The notes under the pieces were generated by a model. The model had not been told where the DNA came from and did not search any database. It was given only the letters and a program-made list of their open reading frames with translations. A stretch of 64,000 nucleotides of DNA, from contig CAMTXC010000006.1 of assembly GCA_947085635.1 (NCBI GenBank), positions 11,564 to 75,563 on the forward strand. The letters run 5' to 3'. Below, piece after piece: positions 25,608-62,809 of this stretch. Source of the DNA: an uncultured Actinomycetes bacterium. GTDB lineage: Bacteria > Actinomycetota > Thermoleophilia > RBG-16-64-13. Positions within the stretch are counted from its first letter, which is position 1. Each line of letters starts with the position of its first letter. The position numbers and the translations under genes are program-made.

Positions 25608-25629
25608 GCGAAGAGACGAGGGAGACGGC

Positions 25630-32717: not shown

Positions 32718-32790
32718 AGCATCCAGTTCCGCGAAGTAAGCGCGGCACCGGTAGTTGTCGATTCCCGACGTTGCGAAGCGAGGTTCACCC

Positions 32791-34101: not shown

Positions 34102-34428
34102 ATGGGTAGTGGTATCGTCGAGGATCTGAACGCCGAATCGTTCGACACCGTCGTACTGGCAGCGGACGGCTCGGTGATCGTGGATTTCTGGGCTCCGTGG
34201 TGCGGGCCGTGCAAGATGGTCGGGCCGGTGCTCGAGAAACTCGCCGCCGACCACGAAGGCAAGGCGAAAGTCGTCAAGGTGAATGTTGACGAGAACCAGG
34301 AGCTCGCCGCCAAGTTCGGCATAATGAGCATCCCGACCGTGATCCTGTTCGAGGGCGGGAAGGTCAAACAGCAACTCATCGGCGCGCGCAGTCAGAAGGA
34401 CTACGAGCGCGAGTTCGGCCTCGCCTGA
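34102..34428 (+). CDS. trxA: Thioredoxin
   Basis: WAPWCGPCK active site, 108 aa. ATG follows GAAGGAGAGG. Confidence 0.9.
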   Translation: MGSGIVEDLNAESFDTVVLAADGSVIVDFWAPWCGPCKMVGPVLEKLAADHEGKAKVVKVNVDENQELAAKFGIMSIPTVILFEGGKVKQQLIGARSQKDYEREFGLA

Positions 34429-35002: not shown

Positions 35003-35124
35003 GCGCACTGAATGATGGGGGCCCGTGGGGCCCCCGACTGTTCTTACTCGGCCCACACCGGGCCATGGCGGACGTTGCGGAGGTGGCTGAGGTGAGTGGT
35101 GCGATCGGAGAAACGGCGGAGCGA

Positions 35125-36010: not shown

Positions 36011-37117
36011 GTGACGGACATCCTTGCCGCACGCGGCCTCACCCGTCGCGATTTCCTCAAAGTCTGCGGCGGCTTGGCGGCGGCCATGGGATTGGGCCAG
36101 GCGGCCGTTCCCGGCATCGCCAAGGCCTTGGAGGCGGCGGCGAAGAGGCCGCCCGTCATCTGGCTCGACTTCCAGGAGTGCCTGGGTTGCACTGAATCCC
36201 TCTCGAAGAGCCGCTATCCCGATTTCCTGAACATCGTCCTCGACATGATCAGCCTCGAGTACCATGAGGCTCTCATGGCCGGCGCCGGACATCAGGCGGA
36301 GGCGAAGCTCAAGCAGTCGATGGCCGACAACAAGGGCGCCTACGTGCTGGTGGTCGAGGGTTCGGTTGCCACCAAGATCCCGAGCGCCATGACCATCGCC
36401 GGTCGTACTTCGGTTGACATCGCGCGAGAAGCTCTTACCGATGCCGCACTCGTGATCGCCGTGGGCAACTGCGCCTCGTTCGGCAACGTGCAGGCCGCCC
36501 ACCCCAACCCCACCGGGGCTATGGGGATGCTGGCCTTCATGGAGCAGGAGGGCATCGACACGGGCAAGCTGGTGCAGTTGCCCACCTGCCCGGTCAACCC
36601 TATCCACGTCACCAGCACCGTGAGCTACTTCCTCACCTACGGGAAGCTGCCCGAGGTCGACCAGTACCGTCGACCCAAGATCTTTTTCGGGCGCAAGGTG
36701 CATGACGAATGTCCTCGCCGCGCGCATTTTGACGAGGGGCGGTTCGTGGAGGTCTTGGGCAGCCCCGAGGAGTTCGAACGCTATTGCCTTTACAAGATGG
36801 GGTGTCGCGGCCCGCACGCGTACGCGGACTGCGCGACAGTCCTCTGGAACAACAAAGCCAACTGGTGCATCGGTACCGGTTCATGCATTGGCTGCAGTGA
36901 GAAAGACTTCTGGGACGAACTAACGGACTTCTACGCCCCCATGCCCGGGGTGGCTGTGCCGGGCTTCGGCGGGATCCGTGTAGGCGCCGACAGCGTGGGC
37001 ATCGGGTTGGCGGCCGCAACCGGCGGCGCCATCGTCGCCCATCTGGCCGTCAGCGCGGTGAAAGGCCGTATCGGCAGGAACTCCGACGGCACGGTCGCGG
37101 AAGAGAAGGAGGAGTAG
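36011..37117 (+). CDS. [NiFe]-hydrogenase small subunit, Tat-exported, with C-terminal TM anchor
   Basis: TRRDFLK Tat motif, CLGCTES proximal cluster motif, further Cys clusters, hydrophobic C-terminus. Confidence 0.9.
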   Translation: MTDILAARGLTRRDFLKVCGGLAAAMGLGQAAVPGIAKALEAAAKRPPVIWLDFQECLGCTESLSKSRYPDFLNIVLDMISLEYHEALMAGAGHQAEAKLKQSMADNKGAYVLVVEGSVATKIPSAMTIAGRTSVDIAREALTDAALVIAVGNCASFGNVQAAHPNPTGAMGMLAFMEQEGIDTGKLVQLPTCPVNPIHVTSTVSYFLTYGKLPEVDQYRRPKIFFGRKVHDECPRRAHFDEGRFVEVLGSPEEFERYCLYKMGCRGPHAYADCATVLWNNKANWCIGTGSCIGCSEKDFWDELTDFYAPMPGVAVPGFGGIRVGADSVGIGLAAATGGAIVAHLAVSAVKGRIGRNSDGTVAEEKEE

Positions 37118-38755
37118 ATGGCCAAGGTCGTCATCGATCCGGTCACACGTATAGAGGGTCACCTTCGCGTCGAGGTGGAGGTGGAGAACGGCAAGGTCGT
37201 CGATGCGTGGGCTTCGAGCACCATGTTCCGCGGCCTCGAGATGATCGTGGAGAACCGGCCCTGGATGGACGCGTGGCACTACACGCACAGGGTATGCGGC
37301 GTGTGCCCCACCCCGCACGGTCACAACTCCGCCATGTCGCTCGAGAACGCGGCGGGTGTCTCTCCACCGCCGAACGGGCGTCTCATGCGCAACCTGCTGG
37401 AGTGCGCCCAGCTCCTGCACGACCACGTGCTGTGGTTCTACATCTTGAACGGGCTCGACTACGTGAACGTGGTGAGCGCGCTCTCGGCCAAGGCGTCCTC
37501 GCCTCAACTGCAGGCTGTGCAGACACGGCTCAAGGCCTTCGTCGACTCAGGGCAGCTCGGCTTCCTCGAGAGCGGCTACTGGGATCATCCGGCCTACGCC
37601 CTCGACCCTGAACTCAACCTGCAACTTGCCGCCCACTACCTCGAGTCGATCAAGGTGCAGGCGGTCGCCTCGGAGGCCTCGGCCCTGTTCGGCGGCAAGT
37701 TCCCGTACCATATGTCCACTCCGCCGGGCGGGTTCTCCTCGGTGCCGCACCAGGACCAGATCGACCGCTTCGAAGCCAAGGTGCGTGAGGTCAAGGCTTG
37801 GATCGACGGCACCCTGGTGCCCGATCTCCTGGCGATCGCCCCCTTCTATCTCGACCAGGCCGGCATCGGTCAAGGTCATGGCAACTACTTCAGCTGGGGC
37901 GTCATCGACGAGGACCTCGAGGGTGGCGACCCCTACAAGCGGCTCTTCCCGCGGGGGGGCATCTTCGGAGCCTTCGACGGCAACCTCACCGTGCAGCAGG
38001 TGGACCACGAGGCCGACGTGCGCGAGTGGGTCACGAGCTCCTGGAACACCCAGTACGAAGGAGCCCTGCATCCCTGGGAGGGCATCACCGGCCCGGACTT
38101 CACCGGGAAAGAGGGCATCGGCGAGATCGACCGTGAGGGTCGCTACGCCTGGGAGAAGAGCGCGCACCTGAAGGGCGGCCCCGTGGAAGTGGGCCCGCTC
38201 GCCCAGATGCTCATGGCCTATCTCGGCGGACCGGCCGATCATCCCGCCAAGAAGCTCATCGACAACACGCTGGCCGCCGTCGGCCAGGCCGGCAACCCGG
38301 CGGTGCTCCTCTCGAACCTCGGCCGCATCGCGGCGCGGGTTCTCAAGGTGAAGATCATCGGCGACAAGACCCTGGACTACATCGCGCAGTTGCGGGCCAA
38401 CATGGCTGCAGGCGACATGAACTTCTACACGCCTGTGCCCAAGAACCCCACCGGCCGTGGCTTCAGTGGTTGGGACGCCCCGCGCGGCTCGCTGTCCCAC
38501 TGGGCCACCCTGGAGGACGGCCTGGTGAAGCATTACCAGATCATCACGCCGTCGGGCTGGAACTTTGCGCCGCGGGCCGGTGACGGTCGCGTGCGAGGCC
38601 CGGTGGAACAAGCACTCGTGGGCACGCCGGTCGCAGACCCGGAGCGCCCCTTGGAGGTGTTACGGACCTTACACTCCTTCGACCCCTGAATGGCCTGCTC
38701 GGTTCACGTGATTGAACCGAAGAGCAACAAGATCCTCAAGTTCCGCGTCAAGTAG
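37118..38755 (+). CDS. [NiFeSe]-hydrogenase large subunit with selenocysteine at TGA 38687-38689
   Basis: N-terminal RVCGVCPTPHG. The ORF track stops at ..HSFDP, but the same frame continues as U-MACSVH-VIEPKSNKILKFRVK, which gives DPUxxCxxH plus a cleavable tail. Confidence 0.85.
38699..38720 (+). other. SECIS-like hairpin (UCGGUUCA-CGUGAU-UGAACCGA)
   Basis: Perfect 8-bp stem starting 9 nt after UGA 38687-38689. Confidence 0.5.
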
Positions 38756-38765
38756 GCCGGTGATC

Positions 38766-39362
38766 ATGGCGAAGCTGCAGCTCATACGGAAGCACGACAT
38801 CATCGAGCGGTTCATGCACTGGGTACACCTGGTGAACATGATCCTGCTCGTGTTGTCGGGCCTGCAGATCCACTTCCCGGCGTTCAACATCTTCGGCAGC
38901 ATGAGCACGGCTCGATTCGTGCATTTCGTCGACATGTACGTGTTCTTCTTCGTCGGCGTGTTTCACGTGTACCAGTTCTTCGCAACAGGCAAGTGGAACG
39001 TGGCCGGGCCAACGCCGCGCAACATGGCCGGCACCGGAGCGGTCATCAAGTACTATCTGTTCATGGCCGACACGAAGCCGGAATACGGCAAGTACAACCC
39101 CTTGCAGATCATCACCTACTTCCTGCTGTTCGGCATCTCCGCCGTCATGGCGGTCGTGGGCTTCGCGCTCTACTGGCCGGTGCAGCTGGCGGTGGTGGTG
39201 AACGCCTTCGGAGGCATCATGACCCTGCGACAGGTGCACTACATCCTGGCGTGGGTGTTCATCGCGTTCAGCATCGTACATGTCTATCTGATCCTGACCC
39301 AGCCGCTCAAGTACACCAGGGCAATGGTCACGGGGCACTACTGGAAGCGTGCCGGCGGGTAG
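38766..39362 (+). CDS. Ni/Fe-hydrogenase b-type cytochrome subunit (HyaC-like)
   Basis: Four TM helices with conserved His residues (HWVH, HFVD, H..). Immediately downstream of the large subunit. Confidence 0.85.
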   Translation: MAKLQLIRKHDIIERFMHWVHLVNMILLVLSGLQIHFPAFNIFGSMSTARFVHFVDMYVFFFVGVFHVYQFFATGKWNVAGPTPRNMAGTGAVIKYYLFMADTKPEYGKYNPLQIITYFLLFGISAVMAVVGFALYWPVQLAVVVNAFGGIMTLRQVHYILAWVFIAFSIVHVYLILTQPLKYTRAMVTGHYWKRAGG

Positions 39363-39416: not shown

Positions 39417-39557
39417 GGTCGGCCCTCGAGACGCCGTCACCCCCCAGGCGGCGTCTCGCCCTTTCCGGTTCGGAGCCCTCCGTGCATGGGGGCAGGGTCG
39501 TTTCCGGGACACCCTTCAACGGGTACATTCACATGAACACCGCCCTTGGAGGAATCC

Positions 39558-40499
39558 GTGCCTGCAGACCTACAGAGATCCGTTCACTACGACGTAGTCG
39601 TGGTCGGCGCCGGGCCGGCCGGCATCACGGCCGCCATCAACATCGCCAACCGCAAGCGCACGGTGCTGGTGCTCGACTCCCAGTCCCCGTTCTCGAAGGC
39701 GGGCAAAGCGCCCGCCGTGCCCAACTACCCGGGGTTCGCCTACGCCACCGGTGAGCAGCTCGGCGAGGCGTTCCTCCAGCACCTCGACCGCTTCGAGGTG
39801 CCCATCGTGCGCGAGAAGGCCTCGAAGATCATGGCCGACGACGACGGGTTCCTCGTGTTTACCGACCGTGAGATGTACCGGGTGAAGGCGGTGATCCTCG
39901 CCACCGGGGTGCATCGGTTGACCGATCTCGAGGGCGAGGATGCCCTGGTCGGGCGGGGGGTGAGCTACTGCGCCAACTGCGACGGCCGTCTGTTCGGCGG
40001 GCGGGAGGTGGTCTACATCGCCTACAGCCCGGATGGGGAGGAGGAAGCCTCCGTCCTCTCCGAGGAACTCGGCGTCTCCGTGACCTACCTGCCGCTGTAC
40101 GCCGAGGAGCCGAACCTGCCCGAGAGCGTGAAGGTGTTGCCGCGGGAGCGCCCCGACCGGCTGTACTCCCGCGACGGCAAGGTGGCGGTCGAGTTGAAGA
40201 GCGGCCCCCTCGTGGTCGACGGGGTGTTCGTGCACAAGCCGAGCGTCGCTCCCGGCGATCTGGTCGAAGGCATCCAGGTGGAAGATGGGCACGTGGTGGT
40301 CGACCGGCGTATGGCGGCCGGAGTGCCCGGCGTGTTCGCGGCGGGGGACGCGACGGGCGAGCCGTACCAGATCGCGAAGGCCGTGGGCGAAGGCCAGGTG
40401 GCGGCCCTGCATGCTCTACGGTACCTGCGCGAGCGTGCACGTCCACCCACCCCGGAGGAGCCGCCGGCGCTTGCGGCGGCCGACTGCGTACCGCGATAG
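39558..40499 (+). CDS. Thioredoxin-reductase-like flavoprotein lacking canonical NADPH-binding motifs
   Basis: GAGPAG FAD motif, CANCDG redox motif, GDATG. AYSPDG replaces GGGNSA. GTG 39558 follows GGAGGA. Confidence 0.8.
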   Translation: MPADLQRSVHYDVVVVGAGPAGITAAINIANRKRTVLVLDSQSPFSKAGKAPAVPNYPGFAYATGEQLGEAFLQHLDRFEVPIVREKASKIMADDDGFLVFTDREMYRVKAVILATGVHRLTDLEGEDALVGRGVSYCANCDGRLFGGREVVYIAYSPDGEEEASVLSEELGVSVTYLPLYAEEPNLPESVKVLPRERPDRLYSRDGKVAVELKSGPLVVDGVFVHKPSVAPGDLVEGIQVEDGHVVVDRRMAAGVPGVFAAGDATGEPYQIAKAVGEGQVAALHALRYLRERARPPTPEEPPALAAADCVPR

Positions 40500-41578: not shown

Positions 41579-41744
41579 CTGCCCCACTCCTCGGTCAGAT
41601 ACCCATGGGGGTATGCGATGCATCATGGTAGACGACGCGGCCGGGCTTTTCAAGGAACGAGGAGTGGAATGCGGGAGGAACCTGCTCGCGGCGGACGCGA
41701 TCTACTCAGCGTGGAGCACTTGGAGCGGCGCACTGGGTTCTCGT

Positions 41745-46543: not shown

Positions 46544-47005
46544 GTGACGGAATCGAATGCGGCGCCCGTGGCGGTGGGCGGTTCGAGGCGCAGGTGGAAG
46601 ATGATCGCGGGCGCGGTCGTGCTCGCGCTTGCCGCGGGCTGGTTGTTGCTCTACGTGACGGTGGGAGGCGACTTCTACATGACCGTGGGCGAACTCGAGG
46701 AAGCCGGCGACGCCGCCAACGTGCGAGTGGGCGGGCAGGTTGTGCCGGATAGCGTCACCCAAATGGGAGATACGGCTACCTTCACGATACGGGATGATTC
46801 GGGCGCTGCTCTCGACGTGATCTACACCGGAGCCTTCCCCGAGCGTTTGCGGTCGTACGAATACGTCGTGGCCACGGGTTCTGTGCAGCCCGGCGGTCCC
46901 TTCGAGGCTGTGGAGGTTCTGGTAAAATGCCCCGACAAGCTCTTTGCTGAGAAACTCACCAATGGCGTCCTCGGTGGAGTGGGTCTCGAAAGGGTCCTCT
47001 ATTGA
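46544..47005 (+). CDS. ccmE: CcmE heme chaperone paralog 1 (Cys variant, KCPDKLF)
   Basis: N-terminal TM helix, OB-fold-like core (VRVGGQV...). Cys sits at the position of the heme-binding His. Confidence 0.75.
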   Translation: MTESNAAPVAVGGSRRRWKMIAGAVVLALAAGWLLLYVTVGGDFYMTVGELEEAGDAANVRVGGQVVPDSVTQMGDTATFTIRDDSGAALDVIYTGAFPERLRSYEYVVATGSVQPGGPFEAVEVLVKCPDKLFAEKLTNGVLGGVGLERVLY

Positions 47006-47081
47006 GCACTCCATCTCTCATTCCCGCTGTGCCTCACGAGATCACCGGCCGGTCGTTGTCGTTCCCGGAAGGGGTAGTCGC

Positions 47082-47504
47082 ATGGAGTCAAAGAAGCTGA
47101 AGTTTCTGGTGGGCGGTGTTGTGATCATAGGAGCGATCGCTACGCTGGCCTTCTTCGCGGTCCGCGAGAACATGGTGTACTACTACACGGTCACGGAGAT
47201 GCTCGACAAGGGCCGGTCGGCGAACGTGCGCGTGGCGGGCGACTTGGTCAGCGGAACCCTTGTCAAGGGCGGAGTGGGCGAGCCCATCGAGTTCGAGATC
47301 TACGACAAGGAAGCCACGGAGAACACGCTGTTCATCAAGTACACGGGCGCTGTGCCCGACACGTTCGTGGACGATCCGAACCAGCCGGTGGAGGTCGTCG
47401 TAGAAGGGGACTATCTTTCGGACGGTACCTTCGCTGCAGACTTCCTCATGGCGAAGTGCCCGAGCAAGTACGAGAGTGCGGAGAGCGCGGCCGCGGGGAA
47501 GTAA
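47082..47504 (+). CDS. ccmE: CcmE heme chaperone paralog 2 (CxxxY variant, KCPSKY)
   Basis: N-terminal TM helix, VRVAGDLV core, C-P-S-K-Y motif. Confidence 0.8.
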   Translation: MESKKLKFLVGGVVIIGAIATLAFFAVRENMVYYYTVTEMLDKGRSANVRVAGDLVSGTLVKGGVGEPIEFEIYDKEATENTLFIKYTGAVPDTFVDDPNQPVEVVVEGDYLSDGTFAADFLMAKCPSKYESAESAAAGK

Positions 47505-47629
47505 CCGGTCGGACGGGTGCGCCTCGACCATGGGGGCGCATCGTATTCTCGGGACGATGGACAAGTGGAGTCGCTGGCTGACGCCGTCGTACGTCGACGG
47601 CACATGAAAGGCACGGAGGATCAACCTAT

Positions 47630-49633
47630 ATGAATCAGATCGGCTATTCGGCGCTGTTGCTGGCGGTTCTCACCTCGGCCTTCGGGTTGATCGCGCCGCT
47701 GGTCGCGGTGCGCACCGGGAGTCGGGGTTGGTTGAAGAGCGCCGAAAGGAGCGTGTACGGACTGTGCGCGGTCTCGTTGGTCGCGTCGGCCGCGCTCGTA
47801 TACGCGCTCATGACGCGTGACTACACGAACGAGTACGTCTATAACTACACGTCGAACGAGCTCTCGTGGTTCTACACCCTCTCGGCCTTCTGGGCCGGGA
47901 ACTCCGGTTCGATGCTGCTGTGGCTGGTGATTCTCGCCGTCTTCGCGGCTGTGGTCGTATGGCAGAACCAGGCCAAGAACAGGGAGATCCTGCCGTACGT
48001 GATCTCGATCCTGATGTCCATCGCACTCTTCTTCTCCCTCATGATGACGGCTTCCCGGGGGTCGAACCCCTTCGCGATGGTGCCTGCGGGCGTCTTCCCG
48101 GCCAACGGTTCGGGCCTGAACCCCATGCTGGAGAACCCGGGTATGGTGGCGCACCCCATCACCCTCTTCCTGGGCTATGTGGGCTTCGCGGTTCCATACG
48201 CCTTCGCGATGGCCGCTCTTATTACAAGGAGGCTCGGCGACTTCTGGATCCGCTCTACGCGACGCTGGACCGTCTTCGCCTGGATATTCCTTACGATCGG
48301 CAACATCGTGGGCGCGTGGTGGGCTTACGTGACGCTCGGCTGGGGCGGATACTGGGCGTGGGATCCCGTGGAGAACGCCTCCTTCATGCCGTGGGTCACC
48401 GGCACAGCCTTCCTTCACTCTGTGATGATCCAGGAGAAGAAGGACATGCTGAAGGTGTGGAACATCGTGCTCATAGTGCTCACCTTCTCGCTGACCATCT
48501 TCGGCACGTTCCTCGTCAGGTCAGGCGTCGTAAGCTCGGTTCACAGCTTCGGCCAGAGCAGCCTGGGTTTCTTCTTCCTGGGCTTCCTGGGGCTGATTCT
48601 CGTGTTCTCGCTGAACCTGCTGTTTAGCCGCCTCGACATGCTCAAATCTCGCAACGAGTTGGATAGTTTCGTGTCGCGTGAATCGAGCTTCCTGCTCAAC
48701 AACCTGCTCCTAGTGGGCATAGCGATGACCGTGCTTTGGGGCGTGCTCTTCCCGATCATCAGCGAAGCCGTCACCGGCAACAAGGTGACGGTGGGCCCTC
48801 CGTTCTTCGATCAGGTGATCGCGCCCATCGGCTTGGTTCTCATGTTCGTTACCGGCATATGCCCCCTGATCGCCTGGCGCCGCGCAACCTTGGCCAACCT
48901 CCGCAAGAACCTCATGGTCCCCGGTGTCACGGCGATCGTGGTCCTGGTGGCCCTCATCGCGACAGGGATGCGCCACACGTACGCGATCATCAGCTTCACT
49001 CTCTGCGCCTTCGTGGTTACCACCGTGCTCATGGAGTTCGCCCGCGGTGCGTGGGTGCGGCGGGAGATGTCGGGGGAGAACCTCGCCAAGGCGCTCGTGT
49101 CGCTCACGTGGCGCAACAAACGGCGTTACGGCGGCTACATCGTGCACATCGGGGTCATCTTGTTTCTTTTCGGAGTCACCGGCTCGTATGCGTTCAAACA
49201 GCAGGAATCGCGCACGATCACCAAGGGTGAGTCCATCTCGGTGGGAGGGTACGAGGTTACTTACGATAGCTTCGACTCGTACGACACCACCGAGAAGCGT
49301 GTGGGTACCGTCACGTTCACGGTGGCCGAGAACGGGCGGTTCCTTGGGACAGTGGCTCCGCGCAAGGAGTATTACTTCGCGAAGGATCAGCCGTGGACGC
49401 GGATCGACCGCAACGTCACTCTGACGCGCGACGTGTACGTGTCCCTACTCGACTACTCGGCCGAGACCGGCGAGGCCAACGTCGAGGTTCGCATCAATCC
49501 TCTGGTGAGCTGGTTGTGGATCGGGGGGATCGTGATGGTGCTTGGCGGTATTGTCGCCATTTGGCCTGACAAGCGCGACGCCCAACGTCTGGCGGCTCGC
49601 TATGAAAGACAAGTGAGGCTCCATGAGATCTAA
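47630..49633 (+). CDS. ccmF: Cytochrome c-type biogenesis protein CcmF (heme lyase)
   Basis: WGGYWAWDPVEN WWD motif and about 15 TM helices. Confidence 0.9.
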   Translation: MNQIGYSALLLAVLTSAFGLIAPLVAVRTGSRGWLKSAERSVYGLCAVSLVASAALVYALMTRDYTNEYVYNYTSNELSWFYTLSAFWAGNSGSMLLWLVILAVFAAVVVWQNQAKNREILPYVISILMSIALFFSLMMTASRGSNPFAMVPAGVFPANGSGLNPMLENPGMVAHPITLFLGYVGFAVPYAFAMAALITRRLGDFWIRSTRRWTVFAWIFLTIGNIVGAWWAYVTLGWGGYWAWDPVENASFMPWVTGTAFLHSVMIQEKKDMLKVWNIVLIVLTFSLTIFGTFLVRSGVVSSVHSFGQSSLGFFFLGFLGLILVFSLNLLFSRLDMLKSRNELDSFVSRESSFLLNNLLLVGIAMTVLWGVLFPIISEAVTGNKVTVGPPFFDQVIAPIGLVLMFVTGICPLIAWRRATLANLRKNLMVPGVTAIVVLVALIATGMRHTYAIISFTLCAFVVTTVLMEFARGAWVRREMSGENLAKALVSLTWRNKRRYGGYIVHIGVILFLFGVTGSYAFKQQESRTITKGESISVGGYEVTYDSFDSYDTTEKRVGTVTFTVAENGRFLGTVAPRKEYYFAKDQPWTRIDRNVTLTRDVYVSLLDYSAETGEANVEVRINPLVSWLWIGGIVMVLGGIVAIWPDKRDAQRLAARYERQVRLHEI

Positions 49634-50192
49634 CATGCATGCCGGGCGCCGAATGGTTCGCGCCACAGCCAAGGTGGCTACTGCCAAGGTAGCCGCACGG
49701 CCGGCGTTCGCCCGGCTCACAGCGCTGCTGGGGGCCGTAGTCATCGCCGTCGCCGCGTTACTGTTCATCGCAGCGCCCGCCTTTGCAGTACCGCCGGTAT
49801 CGAGTGTGGCCGACCAGCTCATCTGCCAGTGTGGGTGCGCCGCGGTGCTCACTGATTGCCCACACCAGGAGTGCGGCTGGGGTATCCCGGCCAAGCAGTA
49901 CATCGGCCAGCAGCTGGAGGCCGGCCGGTCGCCGGAGGCCCTCGTGCAATACTACGTGGAGGAATACGGCGAACAGGTGCTCGCCGCTCCCACGAAGCGG
50001 GGCTTCAACATGGTGGCGTGGGTGGCACCCTTCGCCGCGCTCATCATCGGAGCCGTGGCCGTGTACTTCCTAATCGGTATGTGGGCGCGGCGTAACGGCT
50101 CAGATGTGGAGGAGGTGCCGTTTCGTGAGGTCGGCCTCGCTCCTGAAGATCTGGAACGCAGGCTCGATAATGAGCTGCGGGAGTTCGATTGA
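49623..50192 (+). CDS. ccmH: CcmH/NrfF-like protein, Cys-rich variant
   Basis: Signal peptide, LICQCGCAAVLTDCPHQEC, C-terminal TM helix. Overlaps the end of ccmF. Confidence 0.65.
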   Translation: MRSNMHAGRRMVRATAKVATAKVAARPAFARLTALLGAVVIAVAALLFIAAPAFAVPPVSSVADQLICQCGCAAVLTDCPHQECGWGIPAKQYIGQQLEAGRSPEALVQYYVEEYGEQVLAAPTKRGFNMVAWVAPFAALIIGAVAVYFLIGMWARRNGSDVEEVPFREVGLAPEDLERRLDNELREFD

Positions 50193-50253
50193 GCGGCGGC
50201 CTGTGTGTCCGGTGCGTTAGGCGGGTCGCGTCGATTGTCGGCAGCGCGAAGGA

Positions 50254-50874
50254 GTGATGCTGAAGGTGTTCGAGATGCTGATTCAGGTGATACTGGCTTT
50301 GTCGGTCGTGGCCTTCATCGGCTACCCGCTCCTCAGGGCCGCGCAGACGGGCGAGGCCGAAGCACAGCCACTCTCCGAGGAGTTGGAGGACCTTCTCAGC
50401 AAGAAGGAGTCCACGTACTCCGCTTTGAAGGAACTCGAGTTCGATTTCAAGATGGGCAAGCTGTCCGAGAAAGACTACGTGGAGATCGACGCGCGCTATC
50501 GCGATGATGCCCTGGAGATACTCGGGGCGATTGAGGAGGCGGAGAAGGGATCACCCTCAGATGGTTCTGGCGCCCCTCGCCGCACCAAGAAAGCCCGACC
50601 ACAGGTGGAAAGCCGCCCACCGACGATCGCGAGGCCGAAGCCCGCGAAGGCGACCACCATCGGAAAGACGGCAGCGACTGTCACCTGCGCCGACTGCGGT
50701 CGCGAGAACCCGCCGGGTTCCCGCTTCTGCGCCTCGTGTGGTGTGGATCTCGAGGAGGCTTCGGCGAATGCAGACGCGGGCGGCTCCGACGAGCTCGTCT
50801 GCGACGAGTGCGGGCGTGACGTGGCAGCCGATCACCGGTTCTGCGCCGGCTGTGGCGCGGAGGTGGAGGCCTGA
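50254..50874 (+). CDS. CcmI-like N-terminal TM segment fused to a coiled-coil region and a double zinc ribbon
   Basis: ILALSVVAFIGYPLLR resembles the CcmI N-terminus. The C-terminus has CADCG..RFCASCG and CDECG..RFCAGCG. Confidence 0.6.
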   Translation: MMLKVFEMLIQVILALSVVAFIGYPLLRAAQTGEAEAQPLSEELEDLLSKKESTYSALKELEFDFKMGKLSEKDYVEIDARYRDDALEILGAIEEAEKGSPSDGSGAPRRTKKARPQVESRPPTIARPKPAKATTIGKTAATVTCADCGRENPPGSRFCASCGVDLEEASANADAGGSDELVCDECGRDVAADHRFCAGCGAEVEA

Positions 50875-50942
50875 GATCACCGGTCGTCGAGGAGACGGGT
50901 GGGGACCGGGCCATCCTGGGCGGCACGTCCGGGGGCCGGGAC

Positions 50943-51662
50943 TTGGCCATTCGCGTGAAGGGTCTGTGGAAGTACTTCGATCACTTCCCGGCGATCCGCG
51001 GGCTCGACGTGGAGTTGGAGCTCGGGCGGTTCCTCACGGTGTTCGGACCCAACGGGGCCGGCAAGACCACCCTCATCAAGGTGCTCTCCACCCAGATCGG
51101 GCCGTCGCAGGGCCAGGTCGAGGTGGGGGGGTGCGTGCTTCCCGGTCAGGCGGACCGCCTGCGCCGGCGTGTGGGAGTGATCTCGCACAACACCTACCTC
51201 TACCCGAACTTGACGGCGCGGGAGAACCTGACGTTCTTCGGGCGCATGTACCGGGTGCCCGATCTCGAGGAACGCATCAAGATGCTCCTGGAAGAGGTCG
51301 GCCTGAGCGGCCGCCGCGACGACCTCGTGCGCACCTACTCGAGGGGCATGCAACAGCGGCTCTCCATCGCGAGGGCGCTTCTGCACGACCCCGATATCAT
51401 GTTCCTCGATGAGCCCTACACGGGGCTCGACCAGCATGCCTCGAGGATGTTGCGCGACGTTCTGAAGACGCTCCATACCGGCGAACGCACACTCGTGATG
51501 ACTACCCACAACATCGAGCAGGGTCTCGAGATGTGCGACGAGGTGGCCATCCAGGTGCGGGGGCGCCTTGTCTTCAGAGAGAACGTGGCCGCCATCGACA
51601 GGGCGGCCTTCGAACAGACCTATTTCGATCACGTGGGCAAGGACTTCCGTTGGGATTCCTGA
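50943..51662 (+). CDS. ccmA: Heme exporter ABC ATPase CcmA
   Basis: Walker A (GPNGAGKT), signature YSRGMQQR, Walker B (MFLDEP). Start is uncertain (TTG 50943 or GTG 50955). Confidence 0.85.
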   Translation: MAIRVKGLWKYFDHFPAIRGLDVELELGRFLTVFGPNGAGKTTLIKVLSTQIGPSQGQVEVGGCVLPGQADRLRRRVGVISHNTYLYPNLTARENLTFFGRMYRVPDLEERIKMLLEEVGLSGRRDDLVRTYSRGMQQRLSIARALLHDPDIMFLDEPYTGLDQHASRMLRDVLKTLHTGERTLVMTTHNIEQGLEMCDEVAIQVRGRLVFRENVAAIDRAAFEQTYFDHVGKDFRWDS

Positions 51663-52327
51663 GCCAAGCCTGGATCATCGCCCGCAAGGACATCATCGGG
51701 GAGCTCCGCACTCGGGAGACGATCCTCTCCATGCTGCTCTTCGGCTTCCTGGTGATCCTGATCTTCAACTTCGGCATCGAGCCGGGGCTGCGGGAAGAGA
51801 ACCTCGTGAAACCCGGTGTGCTCTGGGCGGCGTTCACCTTTGCCGGCATCCTCGGCCTCAACCGAAGCTTCATAGCCGAGAAAGAGAACGACTGCCTGCA
51901 GGGCCTGCTGCTCTGCCCGGTGGACCGCTCAGTCATCTACCTCGGCAAGTTCTTCGGGAACTTCATCTTCACCCTGAGCATGGGCCTGGTGGTGTTCCTG
52001 TTTTTCTCGGTGCTTTACAACGTGAACCTGGCGCAGGTGGCACTGCCTCTAGGCGCCATCCTCGTGCTCGCGACCATCGGCTTCGCCGCGGTCGGCACGC
52101 TATTCGCGGCGGTATCGGTGGGCCTGAAGACGCGCGACGTGATCCTCTCGATCCTCCTCTTCCCGGTGATGGTGCCCGTGGTGCTCGCCGCCGCGAAGTC
52201 GTCGGGGCGGGTGCTCGACGGCGTTCCGCTGGCCGGCGCCGGTCTGTGGCTCGCCTTGCTGGTGGTCTATGATGTGATATTCCTGACGGTGTCCATCATG
52301 CTGTTCGACTATGCGGTGGAAGAATGA
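51650..52327 (+). CDS. ccmB: Heme exporter membrane protein CcmB
   Basis: Six TM helices with CcmB-like motifs (FNFG, LLCPV). TTG start overlaps the end of ccmA. Confidence 0.8.
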   Translation: MGFLSQAWIIARKDIIGELRTRETILSMLLFGFLVILIFNFGIEPGLREENLVKPGVLWAAFTFAGILGLNRSFIAEKENDCLQGLLLCPVDRSVIYLGKFFGNFIFTLSMGLVVFLFFSVLYNVNLAQVALPLGAILVLATIGFAAVGTLFAAVSVGLKTRDVILSILLFPVMVPVVLAAAKSSGRVLDGVPLAGAGLWLALLVVYDVIFLTVSIMLFDYAVEE

Positions 52328-53124
52328 TGACGACCGTGTCTGGAGGGATTACCGTGGAGCACGACACGCAGGCGGCCGTCGCGGGTGGAGGATCCTCCGG
52401 CGGCGGTGTGACCACTGCAACGACCCCCCCTCTGCCTGACTCGGGGCGCACCCTCTGGTTCGACATCCTGGGCGTGGCGGCCATTGTCTCGGTGCTCGTG
52501 GCGCTCTACGGCGCCATCGTCTGGGCCCCTACCGAGGCGGTCATGGGCCACGTGCAGCGCATCTTCTACTTCCACATGCCGAGCGCCTGGGTGGCGTTGG
52601 GGCCCGCGTTCACCATCGTCTTCATCTGCAGCATCGTGTACCTCGTGAAGAAAGACCTGCGCTACGACCGGATAGCGGGGGCTTCCGCGGAGCTGGGAGT
52701 GCTCTTCACCACGATCACTCTTCTCACCGGACCCCTGTGGGCCAAGCCCATTTGGGGCGCCTACTGGACCTGGGATCCGCGTCTCACCACCACGCTGGTC
52801 CTGTGGTTCATCTACGTGGCCTACCTCATGCTCCGGTCCTCTATCACCGAGGGACACAGGCGCGCCCGACTCTCGGCTGTGTTCGGCATCGTCGGGTGGA
52901 TCGACGTGCCGATCGTCTTCATGTCGATCCGGTGGTGGCGAACGATCCACCCCACCTTGGTCACCGGGGAAGGCATGAACCTCGACAGCTCGATGCAGGC
53001 CGTGCTCCTATTCTCCCTAGGCGCCATCACTCTCCTGTATGTGTTCCTTCTCGTCGTGCGGGTCCGTCAGCTTGACATGGGCTCGCGCATCGATCGTCTT
53101 CGTCAACAATTCCACCTGCGCTAG
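52324..53124 (+). CDS. ccmC: Heme exporter protein CcmC
   Basis: WGAYWTWDPRL WWD motif. ATGA overlap with ccmB. Confidence 0.9.
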   Translation: MMTTVSGGITVEHDTQAAVAGGGSSGGGVTTATTPPLPDSGRTLWFDILGVAAIVSVLVALYGAIVWAPTEAVMGHVQRIFYFHMPSAWVALGPAFTIVFICSIVYLVKKDLRYDRIAGASAELGVLFTTITLLTGPLWAKPIWGAYWTWDPRLTTTLVLWFIYVAYLMLRSSITEGHRRARLSAVFGIVGWIDVPIVFMSIRWWRTIHPTLVTGEGMNLDSSMQAVLLFSLGAITLLYVFLLVVRVRQLDMGSRIDRLRQQFHLR

Positions 53125-58124: not shown

Positions 58125-58823
58125 ATGGCCCTCATAGAAGTCGACGGCGTTCGGAAGGAGTACGGCGACGCCGAGTGCCGGGTGGTCGCCCTGCACGAGG
58201 TGTCTCTAGAGGTGGAGGCCGGCGAGTACGCGGCTATCATGGGCCCTTCGGGCTCGGGCAAGACCACGCTGCTCTCCATACTCGGCGCGATGAACCCACC
58301 CACGTCGGGCTCGCTGCGCATCGACGGCATCGACGTCTACGACCTCTCCCAGGAGCGCCAGGCCGACCTACGCCGGGAGTACATCGGCTTCGTCTTCCAG
58401 CAGCTCGAGCTTGTGCCCTACCTCAGCGCACTGGAGAACGTCATGCTGCCCCTCGCCATCTTGAAAGAGCGTGGGAAGAGACAGCGTGCTCTCGAAGCGC
58501 TCGCGCGGGTAGGTATCGACGAGCAGAAGGGGCGACGTCTTCCTTCAGAGCTCTCCGGAGGCGAGCAGGGGAGAGTGGCGATTGCCCGGGCCGTCGTGAA
58601 CGACCCACCCATCATCCTCGCGGACGAACCGGTGGGCAGTCTGGACACATCGACGGGGCGGCAGATCCTCGATCAGCTGCGGGCCCTGGCGGACGGCGGC
58701 CACGCGGTCGTCATGGTCACGCACAATCCGGACTCCACGGCTGATGTCGATCGGGTCATCCAGATCCTCGACGGGAGCGTATCTTGCGACGACGGTCCCA
58801 AGATCTGCGTGATCCCGAGCTGA
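58125..58823 (+). CDS. ABC transporter ATP-binding protein (MacB/LolD-type)
   Basis: [29 protein letters not shown]. Confidence 0.9.
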
Positions 58824-58940
58824 TGTCGGTGCGGGGGAGGTGCGGCGGCGGCGCGGTGGCCATATACCACTGGGGGTATCGGGAAAGGTTTGCTAGAATC
58901 CGTGAGACGACGCTGCTATCCGACTTGACCGAGAAGTCGG

Positions 58941-59045
58941 TGAGAGGAAGGCCGATGAGAGGAAGGCCGATGAGAGGAAGGCCGATGAGAGGAAGGCCGA
59001 TGAGAGGAAGGCCGATGAGAGGAAGGCCGATGAGAAGAAGGCCGA
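58941..59045. repeat. 15-bp tandem repeat x7 (tgagaggaaggccga); each copy carries AGGAAGG followed by ATG
   Basis: Six perfect copies and one variant, read directly from the sequence. In frame it encodes (MRGRP)n. Confidence 0.95.
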
Positions 59046-59587
59046 TGAGAAGACCGACCTCGCGCGTGGCCCTGGTGGCCGCGTTCGCTCTGCTGCTGGG
59101 ACTCATAGGGGTCCTCGGGTGCGGTGGGCAGGCGGTCACGAGTGGATCAGGCGTGGCCGCGGCGCCCGACTCGACCGATTCCCGCAAGCCGGCCCCCGCC
59201 TTCAGCGGCGTTACGATGGACGGCGCCGAGGTGTCTCTGGCCACGTTCGAAGGAAAGCCGCTCGCGCTCATCTTCTGGGCCACCTGGTGACCTTCTTGCA
59301 GGGCGGAGACGCCCGAACTCGATAGGTTCTATCGAGAGAACAAAGACGACATCGGGTTCCTCGTTATCGCGATCCAGGACGCTGAAGCCGATGTGCGGGC
59401 CTTCATGCAACAGGGCGGATACGACCTCCCCGTGCTCCTCGACCCGCCGGGCGCTATCGCCAACGCCTACCGGGTATCGGCGGTGCCTACGGCCGTCTTC
59501 ATCGATCCGGAGGGTAATATCGCGAGCATCAAGGTGGGTCAGACCACGGCCGCTCAACTCGAGGAGATCACCTCGGCGTTGCGATGA
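59045..59587 (+). CDS. TlpA/ResA-like thiol:disulfide oxidoreductase lipoprotein with selenocysteine (FWATW-U-PS-C) at TGA 59288-59290
   Basis: The ORF track splits it into 58784..59290 and 59393..59587, which are in the same frame. LGC lipobox. Any repeat ATG from 58955 to 59045 could be the start. Confidence 0.8.
59293..59317 (+). other. SECIS-like hairpin (upper stem GGGCG-GAGA-CGCCC at 59301-59314)
   Basis: The upper stem starts 10 nt after the UGA. A lower 3-bp stem forms across a 5-nt internal loop. Confidence 0.4.
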
Positions 59588-60306
59588 GCATCGAGCAGCT
59601 GAACCTGGCAGCCTTCGGACTAGCTCTGGTGGCCGGCGCCGCCAGCTTCCTCAGCCCGTGCGTTCTGCCCCTTCTGCCCGGCTATCTCTCGTTCGTGTCG
59701 GGGGTGTCGCTGGATCGCCTGCACGTGGACACCCGGCGCGTCTTCTTCGCCACCCTGGCCTTCGTGGCGGGGTTCTCGCTCGTGTTCACTCTCGCGGGAG
59801 CGGGCGCGGGGTTCGTGGGCGACATCCTGCTGGCGCACAGACGGACGCTGCAGATCGCATCCGGTGTGATGCTGGTGCTGCTGGGGGTGCTGGTCTCTGG
59901 CCTGCTCCCCCTGAGCGCGTTCCAGCGCGAGCGCCGGTTGTTGCCCTACCGAGTGCCCGGAGGATTGGTGGGGGCGGGGTTGGCGGGCGTGGCCTTCTCT
60001 ATCGGGTGGACGCCATGCGTCGGGCCCATCCTTGCCTCGATCCTGACTCTGGCCGCTTCAGGCCGGAGCCCCCTCGGCGGCGCAGCGCTGCTCGCGACCT
60101 ACTCGCTGGGGCTCGCCGTGCCGTTCGTGTTCTCCGGGCTGTTCTTCGCCCGAGCCATGGGCGCCTTCTCCTGGGTCAAACGTCACTTCGGCGTGATCAA
60201 GATGGCCTCGGGCGTCCTGCTCGTGGCCTACGGTCTGCTCATGATCGGCGGTCAGTTCACCTGGCTCACCGCACGGCTCGCGGGCTACCAGCTGTTCGAG
60301 TTCTAG
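59584..60306 (+). CDS. ccdA: CcdA/DsbD-family cytochrome c biogenesis thiol-reductant transporter
   Basis: FLSPCVLPLLPGY and TPCVGPIL motifs. ATGA overlap with the TlpA-like gene. Confidence 0.9.
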   Translation: MSIEQLNLAAFGLALVAGAASFLSPCVLPLLPGYLSFVSGVSLDRLHVDTRRVFFATLAFVAGFSLVFTLAGAGAGFVGDILLAHRRTLQIASGVMLVLLGVLVSGLLPLSAFQRERRLLPYRVPGGLVGAGLAGVAFSIGWTPCVGPILASILTLAASGRSPLGGAALLATYSLGLAVPFVFSGLFFARAMGAFSWVKRHFGVIKMASGVLLVAYGLLMIGGQFTWLTARLAGYQLFEF

Positions 60307-60439
60307 GCGGTTCGCTCGGTTAGAGGGCGCGCGAGGCCGGCGCGCGTGGCCTGCCGGCGCGGCCGGCGCGCGCCGGGGCGTTTACCGGCGGCGGAGGGGG
60401 CGGTATACTCGCTGACACGTCGTGAGGAGGTGGTCTTCG

Positions 60440-60565
60440 ATGGCCGAGTGTGTGAACTGCCGCCGGCAGGTGGACGATGACGCCGAGGCCTGTCCGCATT
60501 GCGGTCAGAACCTCAGCGAGCCCATGGTGCAGCAAAAACCGCACTGCGGGACACCGCACGCATAG
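60440..60565 (+). CDS. Candidate 41-aa zinc-ribbon protein (MAECVNCRRQV...CPHCGQ)
   Basis: GAGGAGG lies 9 nt upstream of the ATG. CxxC...CxxC pattern. A terminator-like hairpin with a T-tract follows. Confidence 0.45.
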   Translation: MAECVNCRRQVDDDAEACPHCGQNLSEPMVQQKPHCGTPHA

Positions 60566-60592: not shown

Positions 60593-60624
60593 GAGGGGGG
60601 CGGGCGCCGGCCGGCCCTCTTTTG
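60593..60624 (+). terminator. GC-rich hairpin followed by TCTTTTG
   Basis: GAGGG...CCCTC stem flanking a GC-rich interior, then a T-tract. Confidence 0.5.
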
Positions 60625-60676
60625 CTGCGAGGCGCGCGAACTACGCGCGCAAAGTGCGGCGCGCGCGAATCGAGAT

Positions 60677-60706
60677 CACGCACGGTGCGCGCACGCACGG
60701 TGCGCG
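60677..60706. repeat. 15-bp tandem duplication x2 (cacgcacggtgcgcg)
   Basis: Read directly from the sequence, upstream of fdhD. Confidence 0.9.
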
Positions 60707-60741
60707 GAGCATCTGACCTGAGCGGACAAGGTGGCGAGCAC

Positions 60742-61671
60742 GTGACGACTGACCGACCCATGAAGGAGAATGCACCGTCCGCGGCGCGCAGCGCGAGAGA
60801 GACCCGCTTCGGCGCGTCGATTGCCGCCGTGAACCAGGAACCGGTCCGGGCTGATCCCGTGAGCACTGATGCCTTGCGGACAGACCCCGTGGAGGCGGTG
60901 AGCGCCCACGTGTGGGAAGACGGGTCGTGGAGCGAAACACCGGTCGAGGTGCCGCGGGAAGAGCCCATGACCATCACCTTGAACGGGCGCGAGTTCATTA
61001 CCATGCTCGCCACTCCCGGCGACGCTCCCGCATTGGCGGTGGGGTTCCTCTTCAGCGAGGGCATCATCGACCGGGCCGACCAGGTCGAGTCCCTGGAGGA
61101 GACACCGCAGGGCGTGAGCGTGCAGGCCCGCGGCGTGGATCTCGGCGCTCGTCTGTTCGAGCAACGGGTGCTCACGTCGGGTTGCGGCCGAGCCTTCACC
61201 TTCGGGAACGTTCTCGATGCCTTCGCCGCCGGATCTCGGCGCCCTCCCGAGCCGCAGCCCTGGGTTCGTGCTTCCGTCCTGCGTCAGGCAGTGGGCGAGG
61301 TCTATCGGGGAGGCGATCTGTACCGCAGGACGCGGGGCACCCATGCCGCGGCGCTTGTCGACACCACCGGCTCCCTGGTCGCCATGACGGAAGACATCGG
61401 GCGGCACAACGCGGTCGACAAAGCGATCGGTCGTCGTCTCTTGACGGGCGCGTCGTTCGAAGGCCTGTTCATGGTGGTCACCGGGCGCATCTCCTCCGAG
61501 ATGGTGAGTAAGATCGCGAAGACGCCGATCCCGTTGGTGGTCTCGAAGAGCGCTCCCACCGGTCTGGCCCTCGAGCACGCGGAGCGCGTCTCTCTGTGCG
61601 TGGTGGGACGGGCGCGTGGGCGCACGCTGACCGTTTTCACGTTCCCCGAGTGGGTAGATCTGGAGGGGTAG
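60742..61671 (+). CDS. fdhD: Formate dehydrogenase accessory sulfurtransferase FdhD
   Basis: SGCG, GTHAAAL, DIGRHNAVDK and VSKSAPT motifs. Start is GTG 60742 or ATG 60760. Confidence 0.85.
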   Translation: MTTDRPMKENAPSAARSARETRFGASIAAVNQEPVRADPVSTDALRTDPVEAVSAHVWEDGSWSETPVEVPREEPMTITLNGREFITMLATPGDAPALAVGFLFSEGIIDRADQVESLEETPQGVSVQARGVDLGARLFEQRVLTSGCGRAFTFGNVLDAFAAGSRRPPEPQPWVRASVLRQAVGEVYRGGDLYRRTRGTHAAALVDTTGSLVAMTEDIGRHNAVDKAIGRRLLTGASFEGLFMVVTGRISSEMVSKIAKTPIPLVVSKSAPTGLALEHAERVSLCVVGRARGRTLTVFTFPEWVDLEG

Positions 61672-61675
61672 GGCC

Positions 61676-62809
61676 GTGCGGGTACTCGTCGTCGACGTGG
61701 GCATGGGCACCTCCGATATCCTGCTGCACGACGATTCGCGCCGGGGCGAGAACCAGACCCACCTTGTAGTGCCTTCTGCGACCCGCGTGGTGGCGGCGGA
61801 GATCCGCGCCGCGACGCGGCGCGGCCTACCTGTGGTCCTGCGTGGTCGGCTCATGGGCGGCGGGCCGTCGACGTCGGCCATGGACGCGCACATAGCCGAA
61901 GGCCTCGCCTTCTATGCCGAGCCCGACGCCGCCCGCACCTTCAGCGACGATCTGAGCGAGGTCGCGTCCATGGGTGTGTCCCTCGTGGGGGAAGACGAGG
62001 CGGAGTCCCTTGCCGCCGGCGGGGCCGCGGTGGTGCGCTCGGGTGATGTCCGGCTGGACGATCTCACGCGTGCTCTGGCCCTCTTGGGCGAGACGGAGCC
62101 GCTCGACGGGCTGGGTGTCGCGGTGCAGGACCACGGAGAGGCTCCCGCCGGCGTGAGCGACCGCGTGTTCCGCTTCGAGAGGCTCGTGGAGAGCCTGGAG
62201 AGCTCACGGAGGCTCACCGATCTGTTCTACGTCCTCGGATCGATCCCGGCACATTTCACCCGTCTGGAGGCGGCCGGTCGTTGCATGGCGGCAGGCCTCG
62301 GGGAGTCTCCCGCGCTCGGGCTCGGCGACACCGTCCCCGTGGTGGTTGGCGACACCGTCCCCGTGGTGGTTGGCGACACCGTCCCCGTGGTGGTTGGCGA
62401 CACCGGTCCGGCGGCGCTGTTGGGCGCCGCCCTCTCCCGTGGGGCGCCGTGCGTGGTCATCAACTACGGCAACGGTCACACGCTCATGGCCGTGGTGCGC
62501 GACGGCGAGATCGATGGTCTGTTCGAGCACCACACCGGGAGACTGGATCGGACCTCGATGGCCGCCTACGTAACGGAGTTCCTCGCCGGACGGTTGGAGT
62601 CGGCCCAGGTGCTCGCCGACGGAGGCCACGGCGTGCTGCCCGTGTCCGCGGCGGTGGAACCAGGCTCGCTCGACGTGCTGGTGACAGGGCCGAACCGGGC
62701 GAGATTCGCCGGTGTGACGGAGCGGGAGGTCGAGACTTCGATCCACGGCTCCATGATGATCACGGGCTGCTACGGTCTGCTTGAGGGGTTCCGAGCCCGG
62801 GTGCCTTGA
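61676..62809 (+). CDS. DUF1786-like (ASKHA-fold-like) protein
   Basis: VVDVGMGTSDILL N-terminus. Family recalled from memory. Contains an in-frame 24-bp x3 repeat. Confidence 0.5.
   Translation: MRVLVVDVGMGTSDILLHDDSRRGENQTHLVVPSATRVVAAEIRAATRRGLPVVLRGRLMGGGPSTSAMDAHIAEGLAFYAEPDAARTFSDDLSEVASMGVSLVGEDEAESLAAGGAAVVRSGDVRLDDLTRALALLGETEPLDGLGVAVQDHGEAPAGVSDRVFRFERLVESLESSRRLTDLFYVLGSIPAHFTRLEAAGRCMAAGLGESPALGLGDTVPVVVGDTVPVVVGDTVPVVVGDTGPAALLGAALSRGAPCVVINYGNGHTLMAVVRDGEIDGLFEHHTGRLDRTSMAAYVTEFLAGRLESAQVLADGGHGVLPVSAAVEPGSLDVLVTGPNRARFAGVTEREVETSIHGSMMITGCYGLLEGFRARVP
62324..62404. repeat. 24-bp in-frame tandem repeat x3.4 encoding (GDTVPVVV)3
   Basis: ggcgacaccgtccccgtggtggtt repeated exactly three times, plus a partial copy. 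Confidence 0.95.

Follow-up and report, generated by a model that had tools for sequence, protein, structure and literature searches.

The 64,000-nucleotide stretch analysed here (contig CAMTXC010000006.1 of an uncultured Thermoleophilia bacterium, 66% G+C; hereafter the window) contains a forward-strand reading frame of 211 codons (58955-59587) whose sole internal stop is the TGA at 59288-59290, with a gene for the membrane electron carrier CcdA directly downstream. The original prediction, made from the sequence, joined the open reading frames (ORFs) 58784..59290 and 59393..59587 by reading this TGA as selenocysteine (Sec, U), giving a TlpA/ResA-like lipoprotein with a UxxC active site that was translationally coupled to ccdA. 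The two ORFs do lie in one frame with no other stop inside it, and the ccdA start overlaps the stop codon of the upstream gene, here called tlpA(Sec), as ATGA (59584-59587). The predicted product, Tlp(Sec), begins with MRGRP repeats, followed by a lipoprotein signal peptide, and ends in ALR. The call as a lipoprotein held as well, since the putative signal peptide ends in a lipobox whose Cys is kept in relatives within the contexts AGC, LGC or ACG.

With U replaced by Cys, the protein matches the Pfam families Redoxin (PF08534; 85.1 bits against a cut-off of 26.6) and AhpC-TSA (PF00578; 85.2 bits against 26), both with E ~ 5e-24. The best PDB match is Etrx of Streptococcus pneumoniae (2yp6, E = 2e-21; Etrx 4hqz was also matched), and the ResA structures 3c71 and 1st9 (E about 5e-20) and StoA 3erw were retrieved too. 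In the ResA, Etrx and StoA structures, U falls on the N-terminal Cys of CxxC, which agrees with the TlpA/ResA-like UxxC protein originally proposed. The active site reads W-U-PS-C, and positions C46 (the U/Cys column) and C49 form an invariant pair in alignment A5. A VPT motif follows, the Pro of which presumably marks the cis-proline loop of thioredoxin-fold proteins. Judged from sequence, the product is most likely a disulfide reductase with a thioredoxin fold, a member of the TlpA/ResA/Etrx group that is held outside the cytoplasm by a lipid anchor and is approximately 180-210 residues long.

The uncertainty in length stems from the start codon. The 5' end of the gene is a 15-bp tandem array in which every unit has its own Shine-Dalgarno sequence and ATG and is translated in frame as MRGRP, thus adding (MRGRP)n to the n-region of the signal peptide. 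The sole start in the related locus L007 corresponds by homology to the first ATG of the array (58955); the last in-frame ATG lies at 59045. Copy number varies from 7.3 in the window to two or three in L003 and L006 and one in L007, and the Logan contigs L001 and L002, which are short-read assemblies, break within the array. The array may serve to adjust initiation; alternatively, the region may be one that is sensitive to assembly.

To determine how widely the TGA is kept, one genome per GTDB species was scanned with the degenerate peptide pattern ExPELD[RK]FY, which came from a six-sequence alignment, and 40 loci were retrieved. At the U position 33 of these have TGA, and all 33 belong to metagenome-assembled genomes (MAGs) of Actinomycetota (Thermoleophilia, Gaiellales, RBG_16_64_13 and others). 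Cys-containing homologues make up the other seven (L042-L045 and L047-L049), with TGT or TGC at this codon and hosts that all belong to other phyla (Nitrospinaceae, Nitrospirae, Silvanigrellales, Coxiellaceae, another gammaproteobacterium, Caldimonas and Armatimonadota). The TGA is also present in 57 of 57 Joint Genome Institute (JGI) metagenome contigs that bear the RNA motif described below, which were found by an exact search with its 22-nt core, and two Logan assemblies of other sequencing runs have the same sequence, TGA included. These independent assemblies, together with the counts among loci and contigs, go far beyond chance and rule out a sequencing error. The relatives L003-L009, whose CcdA proteins are 94-96% identical, have retained the TGA, and their gene is likewise split by gene callers. 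In 90 sequences the alignment passes through the TGA unbroken, the second Cys always standing three residues further on, and orthologues that end at the TGA and have an independent downstream start were not seen. Closest relatives apart, the Sec proteins compared are only 34-50% identical.

An exhaustive HMMER representative search with the 98 residues after the UGA returned, among its best matches, many proteins of 73-96 residues that start just past the active site, which by their sequences is the signature of split Sec homologues. The same search retrieved full-length Cys homologues at 46-48% identity (P0039, P0041, P0052 and P0059). A word-index protein search with the full Cys-substituted sequence yielded 12 distant matches only and missed the split relatives. 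Additionally, some MAGs hold two Sec paralogues (L018/L021 and L024/L046; MFD00032.bin.1.257 and MFD00032.bin.2.39), one with a W-U-G(A/S)C active site and ccdA downstream, the other with SG-U-GPC and no ccdA. L046 and L041 appear frameshifted in their C-terminal parts.

Downstream of the UGA and inside the coding sequence lie two hairpins, which we regard as a candidate selenocysteine insertion sequence (SECIS). The original prediction described a hairpin beginning 10 nt past the UGA; it is present and its structure is conserved, but it proved to be only the less conserved half of a two-hairpin element. This hairpin 1 spans +14 to +27, and the 61-nt stretch containing it folds at -20.2 kcal/mol (z = -2.4). 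Its sequence varies while its structure is kept, with a mean free energy over 75 unique sequences of -8.7 kcal/mol against -3.7 kcal/mol for shuffles, whereas Cys homologues form it weakly or not at all. After a gap of three nucleotides (GAA) comes hairpin 2, which spans +31 to +49 and folds alone at -9.5 kcal/mol (z = -3.2). Hairpin 2 lies within a 26-nt block that is near-invariant in 34 Sec sequences, and the changes seen in it are one compensatory C-G to U-A (L032) and two U-A to U-G. It is built of codons seldom used where G+C content is high (GAU, AGG, UAU and CGA), and Cys homologues with the same ELDRFY peptide use other codons and form no hairpins. Between the window and L007, synonymous changes are common along the gene and near zero from about -5 to +25 codons around the TGA. 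The hairpin 2 motif occurs at one locus in the window, where, with up to three mismatches allowed, the only further match is this palindromic sequence read on the opposite strand, and every exact metagenome match of the 22-nt core has a TGA 27 nt upstream in the same protein context. The apical loop of hairpin 2 shows G-U as the SECIS loops of Escherichia coli and Moorella do, and for this reason we infer that hairpin 2 is the SelB-binding part, with the G-U loop nucleotides as the likely contact. Hairpin 1 would then be a structured spacer.

That this organism decodes Sec at all is very probable because a second in-frame TGA lies in the same window, within the gene for a hydrogenase large subunit (37118-38755, forward strand). 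This codon falls in HSFDP-U-MACSVH, the canonical Sec position of [NiFeSe] hydrogenases, and at least eight other members of the protein's 90% cluster, at 522-523 residues, stop at the same codon, while the remaining listed members are partial fragments. A screen of the window for in-frame TGAs with high G+C at third codon positions on both sides yielded many off-frame artefacts and two credible cases, at 38687 and 59288. As an ordinary stop codon TGA is used more often than any other, ending 27 of the 43 confident genes in the window, tlpA(Sec) itself among them, and a change of the genetic code is thus ruled out. The organism is on this indirect evidence presumed to have the Sec machinery. 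Regarding the hydrogenase itself, gene callers split its large subunit at 523 residues, and the protein is closer to the periplasmic [NiFe] enzyme 1h2a_L (430 bits) than to the canonical [NiFeSe] enzyme 5jsu_B (255 bits); its Sec may represent an independent Cys-to-Sec switch. A hairpin UCGGUUCA-CGUGAU-UGAACCGA lies at +13 to +34 from its UGA. A separate observation concerns a gene with a Se_S_carrier domain (PF11823), found approximately 10 kb downstream of ccdA and just before rpsF-ssb in the two closest relatives, L003 (19984-20331) and L007 (19807-20154); the matching position falls past the end of the window.

A ccdA homologue is directly downstream of the gene in 24 of the 33 Sec loci and in none of the seven Cys loci, which, with the ATGA overlap, bears out the proposed coupling to ccdA. 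The commonest gene order is an operator box (see below), trxA, an fmdB-like gene, lgt, tlpA(Sec) and ccdA, then DUF1786 or rpsF-ssb, and in 22 loci a trxA orthologue precedes tlpA(Sec) by 1.5-2.5 kb. The unit is dispersed in the lineage of the window, with trxA at 34102, lgt at 42590 and tlpA(Sec)-ccdA at 58955. There, lgt precedes a full Ccm system I (46544-53124) comprising two ccmE genes, then ccmF, ccmH, ccmA, ccmB and ccmC. Multihaem cytochromes, a Qrc-like complex and a periplasmic hydrogenase are also encoded in the window. No other W-C/U-xx-C or periplasmic thioredoxin-like (CcmG-like) gene was found in the 64 kb besides the cytoplasmic TrxA. The link to the adjacent transporter module, named in the original prediction as a possible client, holds in part: the upstream MacB-type ATP-binding cassette transporter is limited to the closest relatives (L010, L011, L020 and L022), and coupling to it as a family feature was rejected.

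Several neighbouring genes are recorded here in their own right. After ccdA come genes for a zinc-ribbon protein of 41-47 residues (60422-60565), FdhD (60622-61671) and a DUF1786 protein (61676-62809), all on the forward strand. DUF1786 also follows ccdA in the distant Sec loci L014-L016, L019, L023 and L029, which hints at a functional link between the two. The Qrc/ACIII-like module (21064-27891, forward strand) encodes a 4Fe-4S protein, an NrfD-like membrane subunit, an ActD-like protein, a multihaem cytochrome c and a QrcB-like molybdopterin-family subunit (NF041783, 210 bits, under the cut-off). The small and large subunits of the periplasmic hydrogenase are encoded with a cytochrome b at 35825-39362. 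The two ORFs with a CcmE domain are consecutive and partly overlapping (46544-47504, forward strand), and there are two genes with a CcmH domain (34804-35637 and 49623-50192).

Upstream of tlpA(Sec) is a box of the form ATACC-N6-GGTAT, which occurs three times in the window against 0.32 expected: before trxA (33950-33965), before either the lgt/ccm block or a divergent rhodanese gene (41599-41614), and before tlpA(Sec) (58864-58879). It was found in 21 of the 40 related loci (range L010-L041), always heading the trxA...tlpA unit or directly before tlpA, and it is identical in L003 and L007 despite diverged flanks. The CsoR consensus published for Streptomyces is ATATACCCCTNAGGGGTATAT (PMC3902906); the box in the window is similar, with one base fewer between TAC and GTA. 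It overlaps the -35 region of a putative promoter whose extended -10 element (Table 1) was not called by a simple promoter and terminator scan. The window also encodes a CsoR-family repressor with a Cu(I)-type Cys-His-Cys fingerprint (32304-32615, reverse strand) and, divergent from it, a CopZ-like HMA protein with a CEHC motif (32755-33000, forward strand). The pattern points to a regulon, responsive to copper or of a related type, that would include the thiol-reducing pathway. Since the tlpA(Sec)-ccdA unit lies behind a CsoR-family box, its repression is probably lifted by Cu(I) or a similar signal.

Table 1. Features of the tlpA(Sec) locus and associated features elsewhere in the window (positions are those of the window).
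Feature	Position	Strand	Basis or remark
trxA, cytoplasmic thioredoxin (WCGPC), presumed electron donor of CcdA	34102..34428	+	TIGR01068, 121 bits against a cut-off of 96.8
Second in-frame UGA, in hydrogenase large subunit (DP-U-MACSVH)	38687..38689	+	Indirect evidence for Sec decoding
CsoR-family-type operator box, ATACCACTGGGGGTAT	58864..58879	+	Overlaps -35 of putative promoter
Putative extended -10, TGcTAGAAT	58891..58899	+	Read from the sequence; conserved in L003 and L007
15-bp tandem repeat, TGAGAGGAAGGCCGA, 7.3 copies	58941..59050	+	Tandem Repeats Finder: 98% matches, score 213
Predicted tlpA/resA-like selenoprotein gene	58955..59587	+	First ATG of the array 58955; last possible in-frame ATG 59045; stop TGA 59585-59587
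Predicted lipobox Cys codon (VLG-C-GGQ), lipid attachment site	59120..59122	+	Signal peptide in translation; Cys in family members
UGA, proposed Sec codon, nucleophilic residue of UxxC	59288..59290	+	Conserved TGA; Cys at the same codon in 7 homologues
TGC, resolving Cys of UxxC	59297..59299	+	Invariant column C49, alignment A5
Candidate SECIS hairpin 1, GGGCG-GAGA-CGCCC	59301..59314	+	80% of cells paired, 3 covarying pairs (34 sequences)
Nearly invariant 26-nt block, CCNGAACUCGAUAGGUUCUAUCGAGA	59312..59337	+	Alignment A4 columns 28-53; consensus of 75 unique sequences
Candidate SECIS hairpin 2, CUCGAUAG-GUU-CUAUCGAG, presumed SelB-binding core	59318..59336	+	99% of cells paired
Conserved hairpin of alignment A4: the GAUAGGUUCUAUC hairpin			
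Pro codon of VPT motif	59486..59488	+	Invariant P66/T67 in A3, P112 in A5
ccdA, DsbD-type transmembrane electron carrier	59584..60306	+	Pfam DsbD_TM, E = 8e-18; start overlaps tlpA stop as ATGA

Direct support exists for conservation of the UGA and of the RNA element, for Cys homologues, for the domain family, for linkage to ccdA and for the box, and from these we infer a mechanism that extends to SelB binding by hairpin 2, an electron path, its clients, the effect of coupling and the regulation outlined above. The UGA at 59288-59290 would be recoded as Sec by the two-hairpin SECIS inside the coding sequence. Electrons would pass from NADPH through a TrxB-like reductase (39546-40499) and TrxA to CcdA in the membrane, from CcdA to the selenylsulfide of the lipoprotein, and from there to oxidised Cys pairs of exported proteins. 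Because the window has the complete Ccm system I and multihaem cytochromes and no other CcmG-like thioredoxin, the CxxCH sites of apocytochromes c would be the most plausible client in this genome. Synthesis of CcdA would probably be tied to successful Sec insertion, as ccdA overlaps the stop of the selenoprotein gene. A relay of TrxB, TrxA, CcdA and Tlp(Sec) that keeps exported cysteines reduced is the most economical reading of these sequences, with apocytochromes c as probable clients. Taken as a whole, we consider it likely that tlpA(Sec) encodes a lipid-anchored Sec reductase of the TlpA/ResA/Etrx type that is made through two-hairpin recoding and recharged by CcdA, with cytochrome c clients plausible.

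Nevertheless, a number of observations weigh against parts of this reading, and some of them lend support to other explanations. The TGA might be a true stop, leaving either a pseudogene or two small genes, one for a lipopeptide of 81-111 residues and one for a fragment of 60-64 residues from GTG 59393. Gene callers do split the locus in this way on every public contig, and a profile search of 5.8 billion protein clusters, representing a collection of 15 billion proteins, found fragments only and no full-length member of the clade. Such a stop is nonetheless hard to reconcile with a TGA and frame kept in 90 sequences of such divergent proteins, or with the presence of Cys at this exact codon in homologues of other phyla. 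Moreover, conservation of the protein is highest over the 34 codons from the TGA to the start that was called, a stretch that includes the second active-site Cys and contains no conserved start or ribosome-binding site, and neither half alone could form a thioredoxin fold. A pseudogene or split gene was therefore rejected as extremely improbable. Somewhat less remote, and still very improbable, is read-through of the UGA without selenium, as Trp or Cys by a near-cognate tRNA or under a reassigned code, with the hairpins serving as a read-through stimulator or as an unrelated regulatory RNA. In its favour, selA, selB, selD and tRNA-Sec were found neither in the 64-kb window nor in the fetched loci (the tRNA scans covered the window and 52 loci), and the distance from the UGA to the loop of hairpin 2 (+39) is long for a bacterial SECIS. 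The RNA evidence is qualified in other ways as well. The 57 metagenome contigs were retrieved with the hairpin sequence, which makes the invariance of hairpin 2 among them a circular result; as evidence for it, only the 33 genome loci, which were retrieved by peptide pattern, can be used. Rfam gave no match at gathering score in the 64 kb, and its E-value mode on 59230-59420 gave, near the site, only two sub-threshold chance matches, no family fitting the element. The loop of the SECIS-like hairpin of the hydrogenase, at +21 to +26, is nearer the position of hairpin 1 than that of hairpin 2, which bears on the question of which hairpin binds SelB. Selenium-free decoding is countered by the frequent use of TGA as an ordinary stop in the window, by the textbook Sec position in the hydrogenase, and by the location of the codon at the catalytic Cys of CxxC, the standard site of Sec/Cys exchange. 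We also take the GGUUC loop of hairpin 2 to resemble the GGUC loops of known SelB-binding hairpins, which again argues for Sec.

A more serious alternative accepts the selenoprotein and concerns only its role, namely that Tlp(Sec) is a general or copper-linked extracytoplasmic reductase and not a cytochrome c maturation factor. Models for such a role would be S. pneumoniae Etrx, which reportedly feeds MsrAB, and Bradyrhizobium TlpA, which is said to reduce Sco and CuA sites. The best structure match is indeed Etrx and not CcmG, although ResA, which acts with CcdA in cytochrome c maturation, comes close to it in score. Comparison with the curated families gave a mixed result, in that ResA is the best NCBIfam match but all the cut-offs are missed: ResA at 93.5 bits against 170 (NF002854), CcmG/DsbE at 44.7 against 123 (TIGR00385) and 34.1 against 359 (NF011941), and rhizobial TlpA at 50.9 against 230 (NF047696). 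Scores of this kind assign the protein to no one orthologous family and therefore to no particular client. Similarly, most Sec loci have trxA, lgt and rpsF/ssb as neighbours and no ccm, ccs or other cytochrome c biogenesis gene adjoining the operon, and a CcmG gene could lie elsewhere in the genome of the window. The CsoR-type box at the head of the unit, with a Cu-type CsoR and a CopZ-like neighbour in the window, also speaks for a copper-linked role. On the other side stand the full Ccm system and the multihaem cytochromes, with no other candidate for the CcmG role in 64 kb. We regard the general or copper-linked role as a real possibility that falls a little short of even, and the two roles are not mutually exclusive. 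The feed into cytochrome c maturation that was originally suggested is plausible from gene context only.

We also entertain, as a speculation that we would sooner doubt than believe, a broader form of the selenoprotein reading: an Actinomycetota-wide, apparently Sec-only branch of ResA/TlpA lipoproteins with a rigid two-hairpin SECIS, Sec-dependent translation of CcdA and a copper-sensing CsoR regulon, through which selenium would form part of the export-side route of thiol reduction from TrxA via CcdA to Tlp(Sec). If true, the reducing power on which cytochrome c and other exported proteins draw would depend on selenium supply and copper stress together. From the conserved CsoR-type box, a link between copper and extracytoplasmic thiol reduction can be proposed and tested, and, with the Sec hydrogenase in the window, Tlp(Sec) marks these uncultured Thermoleophilia as selenium-dependent in periplasmic redox metabolism. 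UxxC thioredoxin-fold selenoproteins have been known for about twenty years, and the UxxC chemistry itself is unsurprising; the value of the present case lies in annotation and in SECIS biology. All the public gene calls examined cut members of the branch in two or shorten them, and as a result the affected MAGs appear to lack a CcdA partner or an equivalent of CcmG or ResA. For a bacterial SECIS the 26-nt element is under unusual constraint, and studies of how SelB recognises its target in Actinomycetota could make use of it; it should also serve as a specific search tag because it found only the Tlp(Sec) family in the collections scanned. Our search of the literature and NCBIfam found no paper describing this actinobacterial branch, its ccdA operon or its rigid SECIS, and no branch-specific NCBIfam model.

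Among characterised proteins, Bacillus subtilis ResA, which works with CcdA in system II, is likewise a membrane-anchored extracytoplasmic reductase with a Glu after the active site and a VPT motif. Tlp(Sec) differs from it in having Sec for the first Cys, in its sub-cut-off score, and in a setting of Ccm system I instead of ResBC with no adjoining resB or resC. With CcmG/DsbE of system I the likeness is one of context: Tlp(Sec) would fill the role left unfilled among ccmABCEFH, and the Cys homologues L042-L044 share ELDRFY and adjoin ccmH or ccmC. In contrast to CcmG, however, GxPETF, which we take to be the motif typical of that family, is replaced by a ResA-like AVPTAVF, and the gene lies 6.5 kb from ccmC behind unrelated genes. 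Etrx1 and Etrx2 of S. pneumoniae, paired with CcdA1 and CcdA2, are similar to Tlp(Sec) in being surface lipoproteins with a CcdA partner and provide its best structure match; they differ in having Cys, and Etrx is said to feed MsrAB2, whereas no msrAB gene was seen beside the gene in the window. The candidate SECIS resembles those of E. coli fdhF and Moorella in being placed in the coding sequence past the UGA and in having an apical loop with G-U, and departs from them in having two hairpins, a conserved loop approximately 39 and not 23 nt from the UGA, and far stronger sequence conservation than is usual for a bacterial SECIS. UxxC redoxin selenoproteins are established families (PMC13188914 Table 1; PMC1088965). 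Tlp(Sec) shares with them the AhpC-TSA/Redoxin fold, Sec as the first residue of UxxC, many Cys homologues and a UGA followed by a hairpin in the coding region. By their descriptions, it is set apart from them as a lipoprotein confined, in the data here, to Actinomycetota, encoded in a ccdA operon and carrying the near-invariant 26-nt two-hairpin element. Tlp(Sec) is thus a widespread actinobacterial branch of a known kind of selenoprotein.

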